64,000 nt of DNA from Escherichia coli (GTDB lineage Bacteria > Pseudomonadota > Gammaproteobacteria > Enterobacterales > Enterobacteriaceae). Both the position numbers and the translations under genes were made by a program. The stretch is from assembly GCF_013122565.1 (NCBI RefSeq), contig NZ_CP053258.1. The stretch is one strand, 5' to 3'. A model generated the notes under the pieces. That model was not told the origin of the DNA, searched no databases, and was given only the letters and a program-made list of their open reading frames with translations. This document shows, in pieces, positions 13,879 through 39,918 of the stretch. Positions within the stretch are counted from its first letter, which is position 1. Each line of letters begins with the position of its first letter.

Positions 13879-16080
13879 CTACCCCTTCCTGCGCAACAAT
13901 CTTAACGCATTCGCCGTCACCAGCACCGTCGCACCCGTATCTGCCAGCACTGCCAGCCATAGTCCGGTCATCCCTAAAAGCGTGGTGACGAGGAAGATCC
14001 CTTTCAGCCCCAGCGCAATGGTGATGTTCTGGCGGATATTGGCGTGAGTGGCGCGTGCCAGTTCAATCATTTGCACCAGGCCGCGCAGGTGGTTATGGGT
14101 TAATGCTGCGTCGGCGGTTTCCAGCGCCACGTCTGTGCCGCTACCCATTGCAATCCCAATGGCGGCAGCTTTCATCGCTGGCGCGTCGTTAATACCATCA
14201 CCGACCATCGCCAGGGGCGCATGTTGATTCAGCTTGGTCACCGCTTTGACTTTATCTTCCGGCAAGAGGCCCGCTTTAAACTCCAGCCCCAGCTCCCCGG
14301 CAATTGCGGCCGCTGCGCGTGGATTATCGCCGGTGAGGATCACTCCTTTAACCCCCAGCGCGTTCAGTTCACTGATGGCAGTTGCAGCATCGGCGCGCAG
14401 GGTATCCTGTAACGCAATGACACCAAGCACGTCATTGTTACGTACTACCAGCACTACCGTTTGCCCGGCGCTTTCCAGTTCGTTAATTAAACCAGCAAAT
14501 GCATCAGCGGGATGTTTCCCGGCAGCGCATATCAACACGCGCTCACCGTTAACCTGCGCTTCAATGCCAGACCCGACCAGCGCCCGCTGTGATTCGGCGG
14601 CGGGAATGGCGAGTGCAGCAACCTGTGCTTCTCGCACGATGGCCTGCGCCAGTGGATGCGTCGCGCCTTGCTCGACCGCCGCCGCCAGTGTCAGCAGTTC
14701 AGATTCACTAATACCCGTTGCCGGATGAATCGCGGTAACGCGCGGTTTACCGACGGTCAGCGTACCGGTTTTATCAAACGCCACCTGGGTAACATGACCC
14801 AGCTGTTCCAGCGCCGCTCCGCCTTTAATCAACGCCCCACGACGCGCTGCCGCCGCCAGCCCGGAGGTAATCGCCGCAGGCGTTGAGATAACTAACGCAC
14901 ACGGGCAGCCAATCAGCAGCAGCGTCAGCCCTTTATAAATCCACTCCTGCCAGCTGGCGGCAAACAGCAGCGGTGGCACCAGCGTCACCAGCAGAGCGAC
15001 GGCCATAATCGCGGGCGTATAGATACGGCTGAAACGGTCGATAAACCGCTCAATGGGTGCGCGACGCTCTTCGGCTTCTTCGATCAGTTTTAGAATCCGG
15101 TCAATGGCGCTGGCACCCGGTTCTGACAGCACTTCCAGCGTTACCAGACGGTCTACGCTGGTGGCACCAGCAGGGACTTTATCGCCCGTCGCGCGCTCCA
15201 CCGGAATGGATTCTCCGGTCAGGGCGCTTTCATCAAAACTGGCAAACGGTGAGAGCAGTTTACCGTCGGCAGGCAAACGTCCACCTGCGGCGACTTCAAT
15301 CATATCGCCAGGGCGCAGGCTGTTAATCGCCACCTCTTCCCGCTCACCGTTACGCAGGCGCGTGGCGGTTTCTGGTTTCAGCGCCATTAACGCGCTAACG
15401 CCCTGACGCGCGCGGCTGGCGGCCCAGCCTTCCAGTCGTTCACCAATCAAAAACAGCAGCAACACCATCGCAGCTTCAGCCGTTGCGCCAATAAACAGTG
15501 CACCAATAGCGGCTACGCTCATTAAGGTTTCAATGGCGAAGTAGCTGCCGGATTTGATCAGCCGTAATGCCTGACGAGCAATCGGGTACAGCCCAACCAG
15601 CGTGGTCGCGATAAACGCCAGTTGCCCGAACGGATGATTAAATTGCTCCAAACCCCAGCTGATTGCCATCATCACGATAAGCGTAATCAGCGGCAGATTC
15701 TCTTTCAGGCGCGATGCTTGTGGCTCGTCGGCGGCCTGCTCATCGCGCAGGGAATAGCCCGCTTTTTGCACCGCAGATTCAACTTGTGCACGGATGTCAT
15801 TGTCGGCATCAACCACCAGTTTTTCGGTGGCGAACAACACCTGTACCTGATTCACGCCTGCAAGCTGGCGCACGGCATTTTCTACCTTGCGCGCACAGGC
15901 GGCGCAGTCCATGCCGCTGACTTTCCAGCTATAGCGGGTGCCGGAGACGTTTTCAGAGAGAGTTGGCGTGCTGGAACATGCGCCGTCGCAGCAACAGTCG
16001 TTGGCGTTCTGTACCGTGGTTAGCGGTTTGAACGCAGCAAATTGAGGGGCTTTCTTGCCGTGATTGTCAGGAGTCGACAT
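13879..16080 (-). CDS. zntA: Zn/Cd/Pb-exporting P-type ATPase ZntA
   Basis: 733 aa, N-terminal GMDCAAC metal-binding motif, CPC transmembrane motif and DKTGT phosphorylation site. Confidence 0.93.
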   Translation of the reverse strand: MSTPDNHGKKAPQFAAFKPLTTVQNANDCCCDGACSSTPTLSENVSGTRYSWKVSGMDCAACARKVENAVRQLAGVNQVQVLFATEKLVVDADNDIRAQVESAVQKAGYSLRDEQAADEPQASRLKENLPLITLIVMMAISWGLEQFNHPFGQLAFIATTLVGLYPIARQALRLIKSGSYFAIETLMSVAAIGALFIGATAEAAMVLLLFLIGERLEGWAASRARQGVSALMALKPETATRLRNGEREEVAINSLRPGDMIEVAAGGRLPADGKLLSPFASFDESALTGESIPVERATGDKVPAGATSVDRLVTLEVLSEPGASAIDRILKLIEEAEERRAPIERFIDRFSRIYTPAIMAVALLVTLVPPLLFAASWQEWIYKGLTLLLIGCPCALVISTPAAITSGLAAAARRGALIKGGAALEQLGHVTQVAFDKTGTLTVGKPRVTAIHPATGISESELLTLAAAVEQGATHPLAQAIVREAQVAALAIPAAESQRALVGSGIEAQVNGERVLICAAGKHPADAFAGLINELESAGQTVVLVVRNNDVLGVIALQDTLRADAATAISELNALGVKGVILTGDNPRAAAAIAGELGLEFKAGLLPEDKVKAVTKLNQHAPLAMVGDGINDAPAMKAAAIGIAMGSGTDVALETADAALTHNHLRGLVQMIELARATHANIRQNITIALGLKGIFLVTTLLGMTGLWLAVLADTGATVLVTANALRLLRRKG

Positions 16081-17282: not shown

Positions 17283-17552
17283 CTATTTTTTGAGGTTAAT
17301 TTTCTTCTGCCAGGCCAATAGTTCAAACACGCCGAAAAGGAAAATACGCACCTTTTCGGCGGTGGTTAGCTGCGGACTATCCTTCGGTAGGGTCGATTTG
17401 AGTAGCGCCAGTTGCATGGCATGCATCAGCACGGTAAAGATCAGCGCCACGTTAACGAAAATATTCAGCGGACGCGGGAAGGGATGCACCAGGTTGAGGA
17501 TTAAAAATCCCCAAACGCAGAGCATTAACAAACGTCCAATATTAATCAGCAT
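17283..17552 (-). CDS. yhhL: Small membrane protein YhhL
   Basis: 89 aa from the MLINIGRLL Met (the track ORF extends upstream into rsmD). Confidence 0.75.
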   Translation of the reverse strand: MLINIGRLLMLCVWGFLILNLVHPFPRPLNIFVNVALIFTVLMHAMQLALLKSTLPKDSPQLTTAEKVRIFLFGVFELLAWQKKINLKK

Positions 17553-18138
17553 CACTTTCTCCTTGTGCTTCGCGTTGATACAGCCGATAAGCCACCTGAC
17601 CCGCCACTTTTTCCCGATATAATGACCAGTTCGCCGGAACGGTGGGCAGACCGTTTTCGACTTCGCTTTCGACATAAATCAGGGCTTCGTCAGCCAGCCA
17701 GTCGTTATCTTCCAGTAAATTTATCGTCTCTTCTAACAAGCCACGGCGGAACGGTGGATCGACAAACACGATATTATGCGGTGTGCCTTTTTGCGCCAGG
17801 AATGACATCGCGTTGCTGTTCACCACGCGTGCATTGCCTGCTTTTAGTGTCGCCAGATTCTTAATTAACTGCTGAGAAACCGCGCGATCCATCTCAATCA
17901 ACGTGGCCCCCGCAGCGTAGCGCGATAACGCTTCCAGTCCCAGCGCGCCGCTTCCGGCGAAGCAATCCAGACATTGGGCGTCAACAATGACCGGAGCCAG
18001 CCAGTTAAATAACGTTTCGCGTACGCGGTCGGTGGTGGGGCGCAGACCTGGGCTATCAGGAACCGGGAGTTTACGGCCTCGCCACTGCCCGCCAATAATG
18101 CGGATTTGGCCGCTGCCGGAATGATTCGGTTTTTTCAT
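17542..18138 (-). CDS. rsmD: 16S rRNA m2G966 methyltransferase RsmD
   Basis: 198 aa with SAM-binding DCFAGSGALGLEALSR motif. Confidence 0.9.
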   Translation of the reverse strand: MKKPNHSGSGQIRIIGGQWRGRKLPVPDSPGLRPTTDRVRETLFNWLAPVIVDAQCLDCFAGSGALGLEALSRYAAGATLIEMDRAVSQQLIKNLATLKAGNARVVNSNAMSFLAQKGTPHNIVFVDPPFRRGLLEETINLLEDNDWLADEALIYVESEVENGLPTVPANWSLYREKVAGQVAYRLYQREAQGESDAD

Positions 18139-18287
18139 AATAAATTGCTCAATCCGCCAGATAACACATACTTGCAGGCGGTGATGTGAATTAAGTTAAG
18201 TGATAGACTATTTCATCATTTTTTTAGCTGCTATGTACATAGCGTTAACGCTGTGCCATGAAGCAACAGCGAGGAGTGTAGTCGCAA

Positions 18288-19784
18288 ATGGCGAAAGAAA
18301 AAAAACGTGGCTTTTTTTCCTGGCTGGGCTTTGGTCAAAAAGAGCAGACCCCGGAAAAAGAGACAGAAGTTCAGAATGAACAACCGGTTGTAGAAGAAAT
18401 CGTTCAGGCGCAAGAGCCTGCGAAGGCTTCGGAACACGCCGTTGAAGAGCAGCCGCAGGCGCATACTGAGGCCGAAGCGGAAACTTTTGCTGCCGAAGTT
18501 GTGGAAGTCACTGAACAGGTTGCTGAAAGTGAAAAAGCGCAGCCTGAAGCGGAAGTCGTTGCACAGCCGGAACTGGTCGCAGAAGAAACGCCGGAGCCAG
18601 TGGCTATCGAGCGTGAAGAGCTGCCGTTGCCGGAAGACGTCAACGCCGAAGCGGTTTCGCCAGAAGAGTGGCAGGCCGCAGCGGAAACCGTAGAGATTGT
18701 CGAAGCGGCGGAAGAAGAAGCGGCTAAAGAAGAAATCGCCGACGAAGAGCTGGAAGCACAGGCGCTGGCTGCCGAAGCGGCAGAAGAGGCGGTGATGGTG
18801 GTTCCTCCGGCAGAAGAAGAGCAGCCGGTGGAAGAAATCGCTCAGGAGCAGGAAAAACCGACCAAAGAAGGTTTCTTCGCGCGCCTGAAACGCAGCCTGT
18901 TAAAAACCAAAGAAAATCTCGGTTCCGGATTTATCAGCCTGTTCCGCGGTAAAAAAATCGACGATGATTTGTTTGAGGAGCTGGAAGAGCAGCTTTTGAT
19001 CGCCGATGTGGGCGTGGAAACCACACGTAAAATTATCACCAATCTGACGGAAGGCGCATCCCGCAAGCAGCTTCGTGATGCCGAGGCGCTCTATGGCCTG
19101 CTGAAAGAAGAGATGGGTGAGATTCTGGCGAAAGTCGATGAGCCGCTGAATGTTGAAGGCAAAGCGCCGTTTGTGATCCTGATGGTGGGCGTCAACGGTG
19201 TGGGTAAAACCACGACGATTGGTAAGCTGGCACGTCAGTTTGAGCAGCAGGGTAAATCGGTGATGCTGGCGGCGGGCGATACTTTCCGTGCAGCAGCGGT
19301 TGAGCAGCTTCAGGTCTGGGGTCAGCGCAACAATATTCCGGTGATTGCCCAGCATACCGGGGCGGATTCCGCTTCGGTTATCTTCGACGCCATTCAGGCA
19401 GCTAAAGCGCGTAATATCGACGTCCTGATTGCCGATACCGCCGGACGCCTGCAGAACAAATCGCACCTGATGGAAGAGTTGAAGAAAATCGTCCGCGTGA
19501 TGAAGAAACTCGACGTTGAAGCGCCGCATGAAGTTATGCTGACTATCGATGCCAGCACCGGGCAGAACGCGGTAAGCCAGGCCAAACTGTTTCACGAAGC
19601 CGTTGGCTTAACCGGCATCACGCTAACGAAACTGGACGGCACGGCGAAAGGCGGGGTAATTTTCTCGGTGGCTGACCAGTTTGGTATCCCTATCCGCTAC
19701 ATTGGTGTCGGCGAACGTATTGAGGATTTGCGTCCGTTTAAGGCGGACGACTTTATAGAGGCACTTTTTGCCCGAGAGGATTAA
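18288..19784 (+). CDS. ftsY: Signal-recognition-particle receptor FtsY
   Basis: 498 aa; acidic Glu/Ala-rich N-terminal domain followed by an SRP GTPase domain (GVNGVGKTT, DTAGR). Confidence 0.93.
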   Translation: MAKEKKRGFFSWLGFGQKEQTPEKETEVQNEQPVVEEIVQAQEPAKASEHAVEEQPQAHTEAEAETFAAEVVEVTEQVAESEKAQPEAEVVAQPELVAEETPEPVAIEREELPLPEDVNAEAVSPEEWQAAAETVEIVEAAEEEAAKEEIADEELEAQALAAEAAEEAVMVVPPAEEEQPVEEIAQEQEKPTKEGFFARLKRSLLKTKENLGSGFISLFRGKKIDDDLFEELEEQLLIADVGVETTRKIITNLTEGASRKQLRDAEALYGLLKEEMGEILAKVDEPLNVEGKAPFVILMVGVNGVGKTTTIGKLARQFEQQGKSVMLAAGDTFRAAAVEQLQVWGQRNNIPVIAQHTGADSASVIFDAIQAAKARNIDVLIADTAGRLQNKSHLMEELKKIVRVMKKLDVEAPHEVMLTIDASTGQNAVSQAKLFHEAVGLTGITLTKLDGTAKGGVIFSVADQFGIPIRYIGVGERIEDLRPFKADDFIEALFARED

Positions 19785-39707: not shown

Positions 39708-39800
39708 GCGATCAGGAAGACCCTCGCGGAGAACCTGAAAGCACGACATTGCTCACATTGCTTCCAGTATTACTTAGCCAGCCGGGTGCTGGCTTTTTTT
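39708..39800 (+). ncRNA. ryhB: Iron-responsive small RNA RyhB
   Basis: Sequence matches remembered RyhB (gcgatcaggaagaccctcgcggagaacctgaaagcacgacattgctcacattgcttccagtattacttagccagccgggtgctggctttt), ending in a hairpin plus T-run, in the yhhY-yhhX intergenic region. Confidence 0.88.
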
Positions 39801-39918
39801 TTGATCTTTCGTTCTCAATTTATCCACGGGAGTGCTTGTGTTCGTTATGCGCACTCCAGTAGGAACCACGTCCGCTTTGCGCTAAGGTGTAAATAACCAC
39901 CTTAAAAAGGACGAAATC

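Follow-up and report, generated by a model that had tools for sequence, protein, structure and literature searches.

The ftsY locus and the layout of its A domain

The window, a stretch of 64,000 nucleotides from an Escherichia coli genome, contains in its list of open reading frames an ORF at 18288..19784 on the plus strand, which starts with ATG and encodes 498 amino acids (498 codons and a stop). The ORF is flanked by rsmD on one side and by ftsE-ftsX and then rpoH on the other, which is the E. coli gene order according to the ORFs and the RefSeq annotation of homologous loci. When we searched Pfam, residues 211-276 matched PF02881 (SRP54_N, E = 4e-15) and residues 294-494 matched PF00448 (SRP54 GTPase domain, E = 1e-79), and the P-loop GxxGxGKT of the SRP54-type G domain is present as GVNGVGKTT at residues 301-309. 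Of the solved structures, chains of 2QY9 and 1FTS align with the protein at E of about 1e-190 and 6CQP matches as well, and the homologous E. coli loci are all annotated as ftsY, an annotation present in 5,425 E. coli genomes. The gene is ftsY, encoding the signal-recognition-particle receptor, and its N-terminal tract is the acidic A domain, as originally predicted and as borne out by the ORF, Pfam, annotation and synteny. The parts of the gene, all on the plus strand, are as follows.

18288..19784 (+): ftsY coding sequence, SRP receptor (ORF and Pfam; exact protein WP_171460218.1)
18288..18329 (+): codons 1-14, MAKEKKRGFFSWLG, basic amphipathic lipid-binding helix alphaA1, or MTS1 (conservation; function as described in PMC5094494 and PMC5533587)
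18298..18318 (+): two homopolymer runs within codons 4-11, A8 at 18298-18305 and T7 at 18312-18318, read from the sequence
18354..18857 (+): codons 23-190, acidic, low-complexity, disordered core (composition, entropy, dN/dS, AF2 pLDDT mostly below 50)
18870..18911 (+): codons 195-208, GFFARLKRSLLKTK, amphipathic lipid-binding helix alphaN1, or MTS2, at the A/N junction (function as described in PMC5533587 and PMC4602035)
18918..19769 (+): N domain, a helical bundle, and G domain, the GTPase (Pfam; structures 2QY9, 1FTS and 6CQP)

Residues 1-204 contain 27% Glu and 17.6% Ala, and these shares rise to 31% Glu and 20% Ala, with 12.5% Val, in the core of residues 23-190. The core carries 54 Asp and Glu against 6 Lys and Arg, giving a net charge of -48, its sequence entropy is 3.08 bits compared with 3.96 bits in the NG part, and Glu is enriched in the acidic tract relative to NG (binomial p = 3.7e-18). 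For the central region of the K-12 A domain, a pI of about 3.7 and about 25% Glu have been published. The Glu/Ala share, the charge and the low entropy confirm that the tract is acidic and of low complexity. Its proposed extent over the first ~200 codons holds for residues 23-190, but both ends are basic, with a net charge of +3 over the basic and hydrophobic residues 1-22 and of +4 over residues 191-210. The domain is a Glu/Ala/Val/Gln/Pro-rich core of about 170 residues between two basic amphipathic helices. AF2 pLDDT, which serves as a proxy of disorder only, is below 50 at residues 13-60, 79-155 and 159-192 and is 78-94 in the NG blocks, and NMR has found the K-12 A domain to be disordered (PMC5094494).

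Both helices are conserved. The peptide MAKEKKRGFFSWLG is identical across all E. coli alleles, K-12 included, and is conserved exactly in 120 Enterobacterales loci, the cross-genus set having been gathered with a degenerate DNA pattern for this same peptide. The junction helix GFFARLKRSLLKT (residues 195-207) is identical to that of K-12 and invariant or nearly so over 81 sequences, with G195, F196, R199, L200 and K201 invariant in 81 species; AF2 predicts a helix at 196-211, and F197 of the window is K-12 F196, the NG+1 residue, which is the essential Phe of the MTS helix. At the DNA level, the first 22 codons show zero synonymous changes against an 88%-identical allele within Escherichia, while over 80 species 74% of these codons are identical compared with 58% in NG, which is only a modest excess.

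Repeats and length alleles in E. coli

The tract had been described as a repeat domain in which EEA/AEE units recur, and this description is not supported. EEA occurs twice and AEE four times in the tract, compared with 2.6 ± 1.4 expected from composition-preserving shuffles, and five of the six occurrences lie within residues 141-176, the segment of lowest complexity. The best internal match of the core scored 78 compared with 77.5 ± 11.6 in shuffles, showing no excess over composition. Tandem Repeats Finder (TRF) reported a single weak array in ftsY, of 15 bp x 2.2 at 18702-18734, and the direct repeats found in a repeat search of the gene were short (12-34 nt) and imperfect, with nothing longer. 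A self-alignment signal over residues 1-204 (135 compared with 92.6 ± 11.5) was rejected, since it comes from the contrast between basic ends and acidic core and disappears when the core is taken alone. The E. coli A domain thus has no true periodic repeat. The short repeats and variable sites that it does contain are listed below.

18537..18584 (+): imperfect 24-bp tandem AQPEAEVV / AQPELVAE, codons 84-99, varying in the 514-aa allele
18541..18554 (+): direct repeat AGCCTGAAGCGGAA, left edge of a 132-bp duplication (repeat pair spaced 132)
18673..18686 (+): direct repeat AGGCCGCAGCGGAA, right edge of the 132-bp duplication (repeat pair spaced 132)
18702..18734 (+): 15-bp x 2.2 micro-tandem (EAAEE / EAAKE), the sole TRF match in ftsY
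18708..18815 (+): codons 141-176, Glu/Ala-richest segment and hot spot of in-frame indels (indel clustering, entropy)
18756..18761 (+): GCA CAG (A157 Q158), site of the K-12 difference, where K-12 has ACG (T157)
18768..18785 (+): imperfect 9-bp tandem AAE-AAE (GCTGCCGAA GCGGCAGAA), one unit absent in 495-aa alleles
18813..18821 (+): GAA GAA GAG (E176-E178), one GAA missing in the second 497-aa allele

K-12 ftsY is 1494 nt long and encodes 497 amino acids, so the window gene is one codon longer, as first noted. The two genes share synteny and core composition, 97.8% nucleotide identity overall, and identical NG (with no amino-acid difference), MTS1 and MTS2 (the K-12 A domain comprises residues 1-196 of 497, and PDB entries 2YHS and 5GAD hold the full length). 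All seven amino-acid substitutions, V45A, Q50H, D70E, P96L, V98A, E131A and T151A, lie in the A domain, as does the length difference, at which the window reads ELE-AQ-ALA and K-12 reads ELE-T-ALA. The window protein is thus not identical to K-12 FtsY, and the difference first noted is real but ordinary. It is also not a change of an EEA/AEE unit, the site being AQ versus T and outside such units.

When we classified alleles with queries specific to each junction in 5,426 complete E. coli genomes, which gave four common classes, the AQ junction was found in at least 4,353 genomes (3,407 + 946) and the K-12-type 497-aa allele in 840, with 232 genomes left unclassified at site 157/158. The AQ form is also present in all other Escherichia species sampled (four species), including E. 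albertii and E. whittamii. By this sequence comparison, the 498-aa AQ protein is both the majority form and the ancestral one, and its length is no reason to call it aberrant. The K-12 lineage carries a derived, lineage-specific 3-bp deletion, the reverse of the expansion in the window that had been implied. The deletion turned GAA ACA CAG into GAA ACG, and strain GPEC1446 shows a TQ intermediate; it has no clean slippage signature, ACA being removed from the context ACACAG. Errors in sequencing or assembly might instead have produced the extra codon, or it might be an insertion private to the source strain, given that the exact window protein occurs on only 2 contigs and that the best complete RefSeq genome is at most 98.7% identical in nucleotides to the window ftsY. 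However, the window allele is rare because of the point substitutions that it combines (E131A and T151A among them) and not because of its length, and the AQ counts in E. coli and in the four other species refute such a reading.

Between strains, FtsY length ranges from 493 to 542 aa. A second 497-aa allele, independent of that of K-12, lost one GAA of GAA-GAA-GAG and is carried by 844 genomes, and the 495-aa allele, which lost one AAE of the imperfect 9-bp tandem, is found in 140 RefSeq genomes; the 495-aa alleles P0047 and P0120 are each on at least 1000 contigs. Rarer alleles of 493, 499, 514 and 542 aa came from the best 120 matches of a protein search, all of them E. coli variants. In the 493-aa alleles P0113 and P0124, exactly one 15-bp unit of the 18702-18734 tandem is missing, the 514-aa allele P0021 has AQPEAEVV three times at codons 84-99 through a gain of two 24-bp units, and in the 542-aa allele P0016 a segment of 44 aa is duplicated between the direct repeats AGCCTGAAGCGGAA and AGGCCGCAGCGGAA. 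The A-domain indels are all in frame and most lie at micro-tandem or short direct repeats, while the K-12 deletion and several alleles with one additional codon map to no clear repeat unit. Codons 141-176, where the entropy over 40-aa windows reaches its minimum of 2.31 bits, contain 9 of the 11 distinct intraspecies indel types (binomial p = 3e-5) and correspond to the segment 143-176 that cross-links to SecY (PMC4602035), and in-frame differences of 3-15 bp in this segment are normal polymorphism that could mark lineages. The expectation of a slippage-prone tract of strain-variable length was therefore right in that length varies and most indels fall at micro-repeats, but the domain is not periodic and its difference from K-12 bears no clean mark of slippage. 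Two candidates were set aside: the 516-aa allele P0012 is not an A-domain expansion but an A8 to A7 frameshift rescued by an upstream ATG at 18233, and the 529-aa alleles P0028 and P0056 were not counted, being on a 4.6-kb metagenome contig that joins two allele types and probably chimeric assemblies.

Real arrays do exist in this domain elsewhere, and one alternative is that the tract is itself a true tandem-repeat locus (VNTR or contingency-type) in which the number of copies changes quickly and adaptively among strains. TRF reported a match in 47 of 81 Enterobacterales A domains: Y. pestis has an (EVE)n array (GAAGTTGAA) x 15.3 with 100% match, Shimwellia has a 36 bp x 18.4 array (18 copies of a 12-aa unit), and Pantoea spp. 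have arrays of 75-117 bp x 2.5-4.7 with multiplied DEEL-x-ALAL units. In Lactobacillus johnsonii, short repeats likewise make the coding sequence of ftsY vary in length between strains, and a 12-bp SSR with seven alleles (LJ12) has been used in strain typing there (PMC3503616). This was the only relevant entry that a literature search on ftsY VNTRs gave, as VNTR3239 of M. tuberculosis is intergenic, downstream of ftsY, and a V. cholerae paper is unrelated. However, LJ12 is a genuine microsatellite, (12 bp)4, whereas the E. coli indels are sporadic micro-repeat events, and the E. coli domain has almost no repeats, with no periodicity above composition in the window. In addition, E. coli has only a few length alleles and hundreds of genomes share each one (840, 844 and 140), a pattern that indicates old events passed on clonally and not fast switching. 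Every indel is in frame, so that on/off phase variation does not occur. We therefore regard a VNTR locus of this kind as very improbable.

Constraint on the core and a helical motif at its centre

The core is under much weaker constraint than NG. Within E. coli, dN/dS is 0.25 in the core and 0.013 in NG, and against the 88%-identical MSB1_4I allele the values are 0.19 and 0.005, while dS is alike in the two parts (0.054 and 0.073 within E. coli; 0.54 and 0.52 against MSB1_4I). The values of dS bear on whether the composition could reflect an overlapping gene or RNA in another frame or strand, as ORFs of 77-83 aa lie at 18231..18464 (-), 18404..18643 (-) and 18442..18693 (+). Synonymous divergence of the core against MSB1_4I is, however, not reduced relative to NG, and GAA/GCN-rich DNA is by nature stop-free in other frames. 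Furthermore, an Rfam search of the region gave no match, promoter-like and terminator-like sites did not exceed their frequency in shuffled sequence, and no inverted repeats were found in the region; an overlapping feature can hardly account for the composition.

Among Enterobacterales (Yersinia, Pantoea, Shimwellia, Klebsiella and others), FtsY proteins share the first 14 residues, the acidic core, the junction helix and the 304-aa NG part, and differ in that many have true arrays. NG is 304 aa long in 79 of 80 species, whereas the A domain ranges from 148 to 308 aa with a net charge of -22 to -73 and is acidic in every one of the 80. Two conserved islands lie within the core, at residues 65-80 and 153-160, and their conservation across genera means that a view based on composition only is oversimplified.

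18480..18527 (+): conserved island 1, codons 65-80, ETFAAEVVEVTEQVAE (7-residue smoothed identity of at least 0.5 in 80 Enterobacterales species)
18741..18770 (+): DEELEAQALA motif, codons 152-161 (conserved island; equivalent to the transient helix)

AF2 places a low-confidence helix at 61-81 over island 1 and a helix at 152-164 over the second region. There, the motif L-[ST]-D-EEL-E-A-[QL]-ALA (residues 150-161) is found in 49 of 81 Enterobacterales sequences and is multiplied two to five times in Pantoea. It overlaps the one transient helix that NMR detected, at D152-A161 in K-12 FtsY (PMC5094494), and the segment of residues 143-176 to which a SecY cross-link maps (PMC4602035). The K-12 deletion falls within this motif.

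These observations might suggest that the conserved short helix at the centre of the A domain is a specific docking element for SecY or another partner, which we consider unlikely; if it were so, the K-12 laboratory allele, the basis of all biochemistry, would be an atypical derived variant one motif residue short, and natural length alleles would differ in translocon docking. A slightly more doubtful extension is that the indels are not neutral but tune a SecY-docking helix at 150-161, so that the length alleles, including that of K-12, differ functionally. In its favor, 9 of the 11 indel types lie within 141-176 and the K-12 deletion shifts the Leu-Leu spacing from i+5 to i+4. However, the same segment is the lowest-complexity and most repeat-rich DNA of the domain, and mutational bias alone suffices for the clustering. 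The motif is also missing in 32 of the 81 species, including Yersinia, Dickeya, Cedecea and Buttiauxella. With the NG+1 construct, the A domain as a whole is not required for growth (PMC5533587, PMC4602035), and NMR points to non-specific binding (PMC5094494).

The A domain as a probable disordered electrostatic tether

Based on these observations, we consider it highly probable that the tract is a disordered acidic electrostatic tether of FtsY, which is weakly constrained, is present in its ancestral 498-aa form and tolerates slippage-type indels. The mechanism is carried over from the 96%-identical K-12 protein, for which binding of the A domain to SecY is electrostatic and salt-sensitive, with a Kd of 0.18 uM (PMC5094494), and for which dynamic and stable membrane-binding modes and autoinhibition by the acidic domain have been described (PMC5533587; PMC2064314 is a further source on A-domain mechanism). 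By analogy, the N-terminal helix would be the first to bind anionic lipids, and would do so dynamically. The acidic core would stay disordered and be repelled by the membrane, which would be autoinhibitory, and electrostatic attraction would draw it to the basic C4/C5 loops on the cytosolic side of SecY, tethering NG. The junction helix would then give a stable lipid contact and activate the GTPase. Function would be set by charge, disorder and approximate length rather than by exact sequence, and selection on the core would therefore be weak and in-frame indels tolerated. The GAA/GCN-rich codons would produce the micro-tandem and the short direct repeats, at which replication slippage or unequal exchange could gain or lose 3-132 bp.

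Acidity, disorder, poor conservation and dispensability of the A domain are established already and are of little discovery value; the domain is non-essential in E. coli and absent from many bacteria (PMC4602035). FtsY of Thermus aquaticus and Thermotoga maritima and chloroplast cpFtsY have a homologous NG core but no acidic tether, and solved chains of FtsY proteins without an A domain begin at about window residue 195-205, which is the position of the junction helix.

In the eukaryotic receptor SR-alpha, an N-terminal extension upstream of NG (SRX and a charged linker) places the receptor at the translocon membrane, although the anchor there is a folded SRX domain bound to SR-beta and not amphipathic helices with an acidic disordered tether. 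To our knowledge, this extension has no detectable sequence homology with the A-domain region of FtsY. The A domain is a clean natural case of a disordered electrostatic tether, 148-308 aa long, beside a catalytic module fixed in length.

Organization and composition of the FtsY acidic domain

The segment at 18288-18900 of the window is the A domain, the acidic N-terminal part of FtsY, a feature that is already known. It precedes the N and GTPase (NG) domains.

ftsY, its neighbours and mapped elements
17542..18138, - strand: rsmD, one flank of ftsY
18233-18235: ATG upstream of the ftsY start
18288..19784, + strand: ftsY ORF, ATG start, 498 codons
18298-18305: homopolymer A8, within ftsY codons 4-11
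18312-18318: homopolymer T7, within ftsY codons 4-11
18480-18527, residues 65-80: conserved island in the core, ETFAAEVVEVTEQVAE
Residues 153-160: conserved island in the core
Residues 211-276: SRP54-type N helical bundle (E = 4e-15)
Residues 294-494: SRP54-type GTPase domain (E = 1e-79)
19787 onward: ftsE-ftsX-rpoH, other flank of ftsY

The homologous locus is annotated as ftsY in 5,425 of 5,426 complete E. coli genomes. In public databases the identical protein (E. coli WP_171460218.1 / QJU26535.1) occurs on two contigs only. Nucleotide identity to any complete RefSeq genome reaches at most 98.7% for ftsY and 99.3% for ftsEX-rpoH, and these ceilings indicate that the E. coli lineage of the window has been sampled sparsely. 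The 90%-identity protein cluster containing this FtsY has 11,145 members, many of them 222-aa FtsE proteins. This mixture resembles an artefact of clustering, for which FtsY-FtsE read-through fusions may be the bridge; numerous near-identical FtsY variants fall outside the cluster as singletons. A 516-aa FtsY entry, WXP39172.1, carries an A7 frameshift, probably a long-read homopolymer error, and was re-annotated from the upstream ATG.

When we examined the composition of the core (residues 23-190), it contained 31% Glu, 20% Ala and 12.5% Val, with a net charge of -48 (54 acidic and 6 basic residues), an entropy of 3.08 bits versus 3.96 bits in the NG part, and enrichment of Glu relative to NG (p = 3.7e-18). 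The original prediction of an acidic low-complexity tract was thus borne out for residues 23-190, but the tract is shorter than the 204-codon span noted at first and is flanked by a basic/hydrophobic segment at residues 1-22 (net +3) and a basic one at residues 191-210 (net +4). The reiterated EEA/AEE units did not hold up. There are two EEA and four AEE, compared with 2.6 ± 1.4 in composition-preserving shuffles, and the best internal self-match of the core scored 78 against 77.5 ± 11.6 in shuffles. Tandem Repeats Finder (TRF) detected a single weak array in ftsY (15 bp x 2.2 at 18702-18734), and in the repeat search the direct repeats were all short and imperfect, with inverted repeats absent. 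Residues 141-176, the segment of lowest complexity, contain five of the six EEA/AEE copies. Since the motif counts and the self-match are at shuffle level and TRF gives one weak array, the core has a biased composition and a few micro-repeats but is not a repeat domain.

Length polymorphism and the difference from K-12

The ORF is one codon longer than that of K-12, as predicted (1497 nt and 498 aa versus 1494 nt and 497 aa). The window reads GAA GCA CAG GCG (E-A-Q-A; codons 157-158, hereafter AQ, at 18756-18761), where K-12 reads GAA ACG GCG (E-T-A). Strain GPEC1446 has the intermediate GAA ACA CAG GCG (E-T-Q-A), from which loss of ACA gives the K-12 sequence. ELEAQALA is found in E. albertii, E. 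whittamii, Escherichia sp. E1V33, the divergent MSB1_4I and one further GTDB Escherichia representative. Because other Escherichia carry this form and GPEC1446 bridges it to K-12, AQ is ancestral and a derived 3-bp deletion marks the K-12 lineage. The difference noticed is thus this K-12 deletion and not a slippage expansion of EEA/AEE units.

We counted alleles using junction-specific 32-35-nt queries, in which a match requires an exact 28-mer across the site. AQ matched 3,407 genomes, a further 946 had it on a CCG-GAG background, the K-12 deletion was present in 840, and 232 genomes stayed unclassified; by these counts the window carries the majority form. A sample of 40 evenly spaced genomes was in agreement: ftsY was 1497 nt in 25, 1494 nt in 13, and 1488 nt and 1515 nt in one each.

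Other FtsY length alleles in E. coli (some of the rare ones were seen once and may reflect sequencing error)
497 aa, second type: GCA GAA GAA GAG shortened by one GAA; 844 genomes
495 aa: imperfect 9-bp tandem GCTGCCGAA / GCGGCAGAA (AAE-AAE) shortened by one unit; 140 RefSeq genomes, over 1000 contigs in a larger protein collection
495 aa, other: EEA lost; 103 contigs
493 aa: one 15-bp TRF unit lost exactly; rare
499 aa: +A, +E, +K or +G; rare
514 aa: AQPEAEVV x3; rare
542 aa: 44 aa (132 bp) duplicated in tandem, bounded by the direct repeats at 18541 and 18673; rare

The indels listed are all in frame, and residues 141-176, 21% of the core, hold 9 of the 11 distinct event types (p = 3e-5). 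The predicted variation in length between strains is therefore real and often located at micro-repeats, and slippage probably explains much of it, but the K-12 deletion lacks a clear repeat context. Two loci labelled Escherichia coli, L004 (NZ_LR898874.1, MSB1_4I; ftsY of 504 aa, 88% nucleotide identity, near the E. albertii allele) and L030 (SCPM-O-B-8794; 512 aa, E. whittamii-like), carry ftsY alleles atypical of E. coli and are probably misassigned species or cryptic clades.

Conservation and selection

Searching for MAKEKKRGFFSWLG with a degenerate DNA pattern yielded 120 Enterobacterales loci, with a complete FtsY in 80. From the GFF junction on, FtsY comprises 304 aa in 79 of 80 species, while A-domain length varies between 148 and 308 aa (median 224.5) and the domain is acidic in every species (net charge -22 to -73). 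Compared with the window FtsY, residues 1-16 have a mean identity of 0.99, the core 0.35 and NG 0.93. TRF-detectable arrays were present in 47 of 81 A domains, including a perfect (GAAGTTGAA) x15.3 array encoding (EVE)n in Yersinia pestis NCTC5923 (L060 2230-3933), a 36 bp x18.4 array encoding AEAKAAAEAQAA in Shimwellia pseudoproteus (L037 617-2452; core 55% Ala) and arrays of 75-117-bp units in Pantoea. Repeat turnover drives A-domain length change in the family, and the E. coli domain is comparatively repeat-poor beside these relatives.

For the island at residues 65-80, conserved across Enterobacterales, no function was found in the cited FtsY literature. The island at 153-160 is part of the motif L-[ST]-D-EEL-E-A-[QL]-ALA (residues 152-161 at 18741-18770), which occurs in 49 of 81 Enterobacterales species and in 2-5 tandem copies in Pantoea (loci listed for the motif: L024, L051, L068, L076, L079, L099 and L105). 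It coincides with both a transient helix published from NMR and the segment that cross-links to SecY, and the K-12 deletion removes one of its residues. This coincidence may be meaningless, since the DNA there is the most slippage-prone in the domain and Yersinia and Dickeya are among those lacking the motif.

The seven amino-acid substitutions that separate the window FtsY from that of K-12 all fall in the A domain. When we calculated dN/dS (Nei-Gojobori, 14 distinct E. coli alleles), the acidic core gave 0.25 versus 0.013 for the A/N junction plus NG; comparison with the 88%-identical MSB1_4I allele gave 0.19 and 0.005. Synonymous divergence was alike in the core and the NG part, which makes an overlapping coding or RNA element in the core unlikely, and the Rfam and promoter/terminator scans count against one as well. 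The first 66 nt of ftsY (18288-18353) show zero changes, synonymous included, against the 88%-identical Escherichia lineage, and codon identity at conserved residues across 80 species was 74% there versus 58% in NG; the added constraint at the 5' end is small.

Functional context and other features of the window

Beside the anatomy, selection pattern and polymorphism observed here, published K-12 work describes an intrinsically disordered A domain with transient structure only at 8-18, 152-161 and 188-197, whose basic ends bind anionic lipids; the binding of its acidic centre to basic SecY loops is non-specific and electrostatic (Kd 0.18 uM, salt-sensitive) and tethers FtsY, leaving the NG domain free to search for SRP (PMC5094494). 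Residues 143-176 cross-link to SecY, and the A domain is dispensable in E. coli and missing in many bacteria (PMC4602035). The acidic domain autoinhibits stable membrane binding, helix 1-14 lifts this inhibition (PMC5533587), and the A domain adds stability to the FtsY-SecY complex (PMC2064314). By analogy, these steps would apply to the window allele. Its AlphaFold2 model, with pLDDT below 50 across almost all of the core, 78-94 in the NG blocks and low-confidence helices at 61-81, 152-164 and 196-211, is consistent with the K-12 picture.

Elsewhere in the 64-kb window, the sole Rfam match above the gathering threshold was the RyhB small RNA (RF00057, 83 bits; 39737-39801, + strand). A 733-aa ORF at 13879-16080 (- strand) resembles heavy-metal P-type ATPases, with CxxC metal-binding and CPC motifs, and is presumably zntA from its location upstream of rsmD-ftsY.
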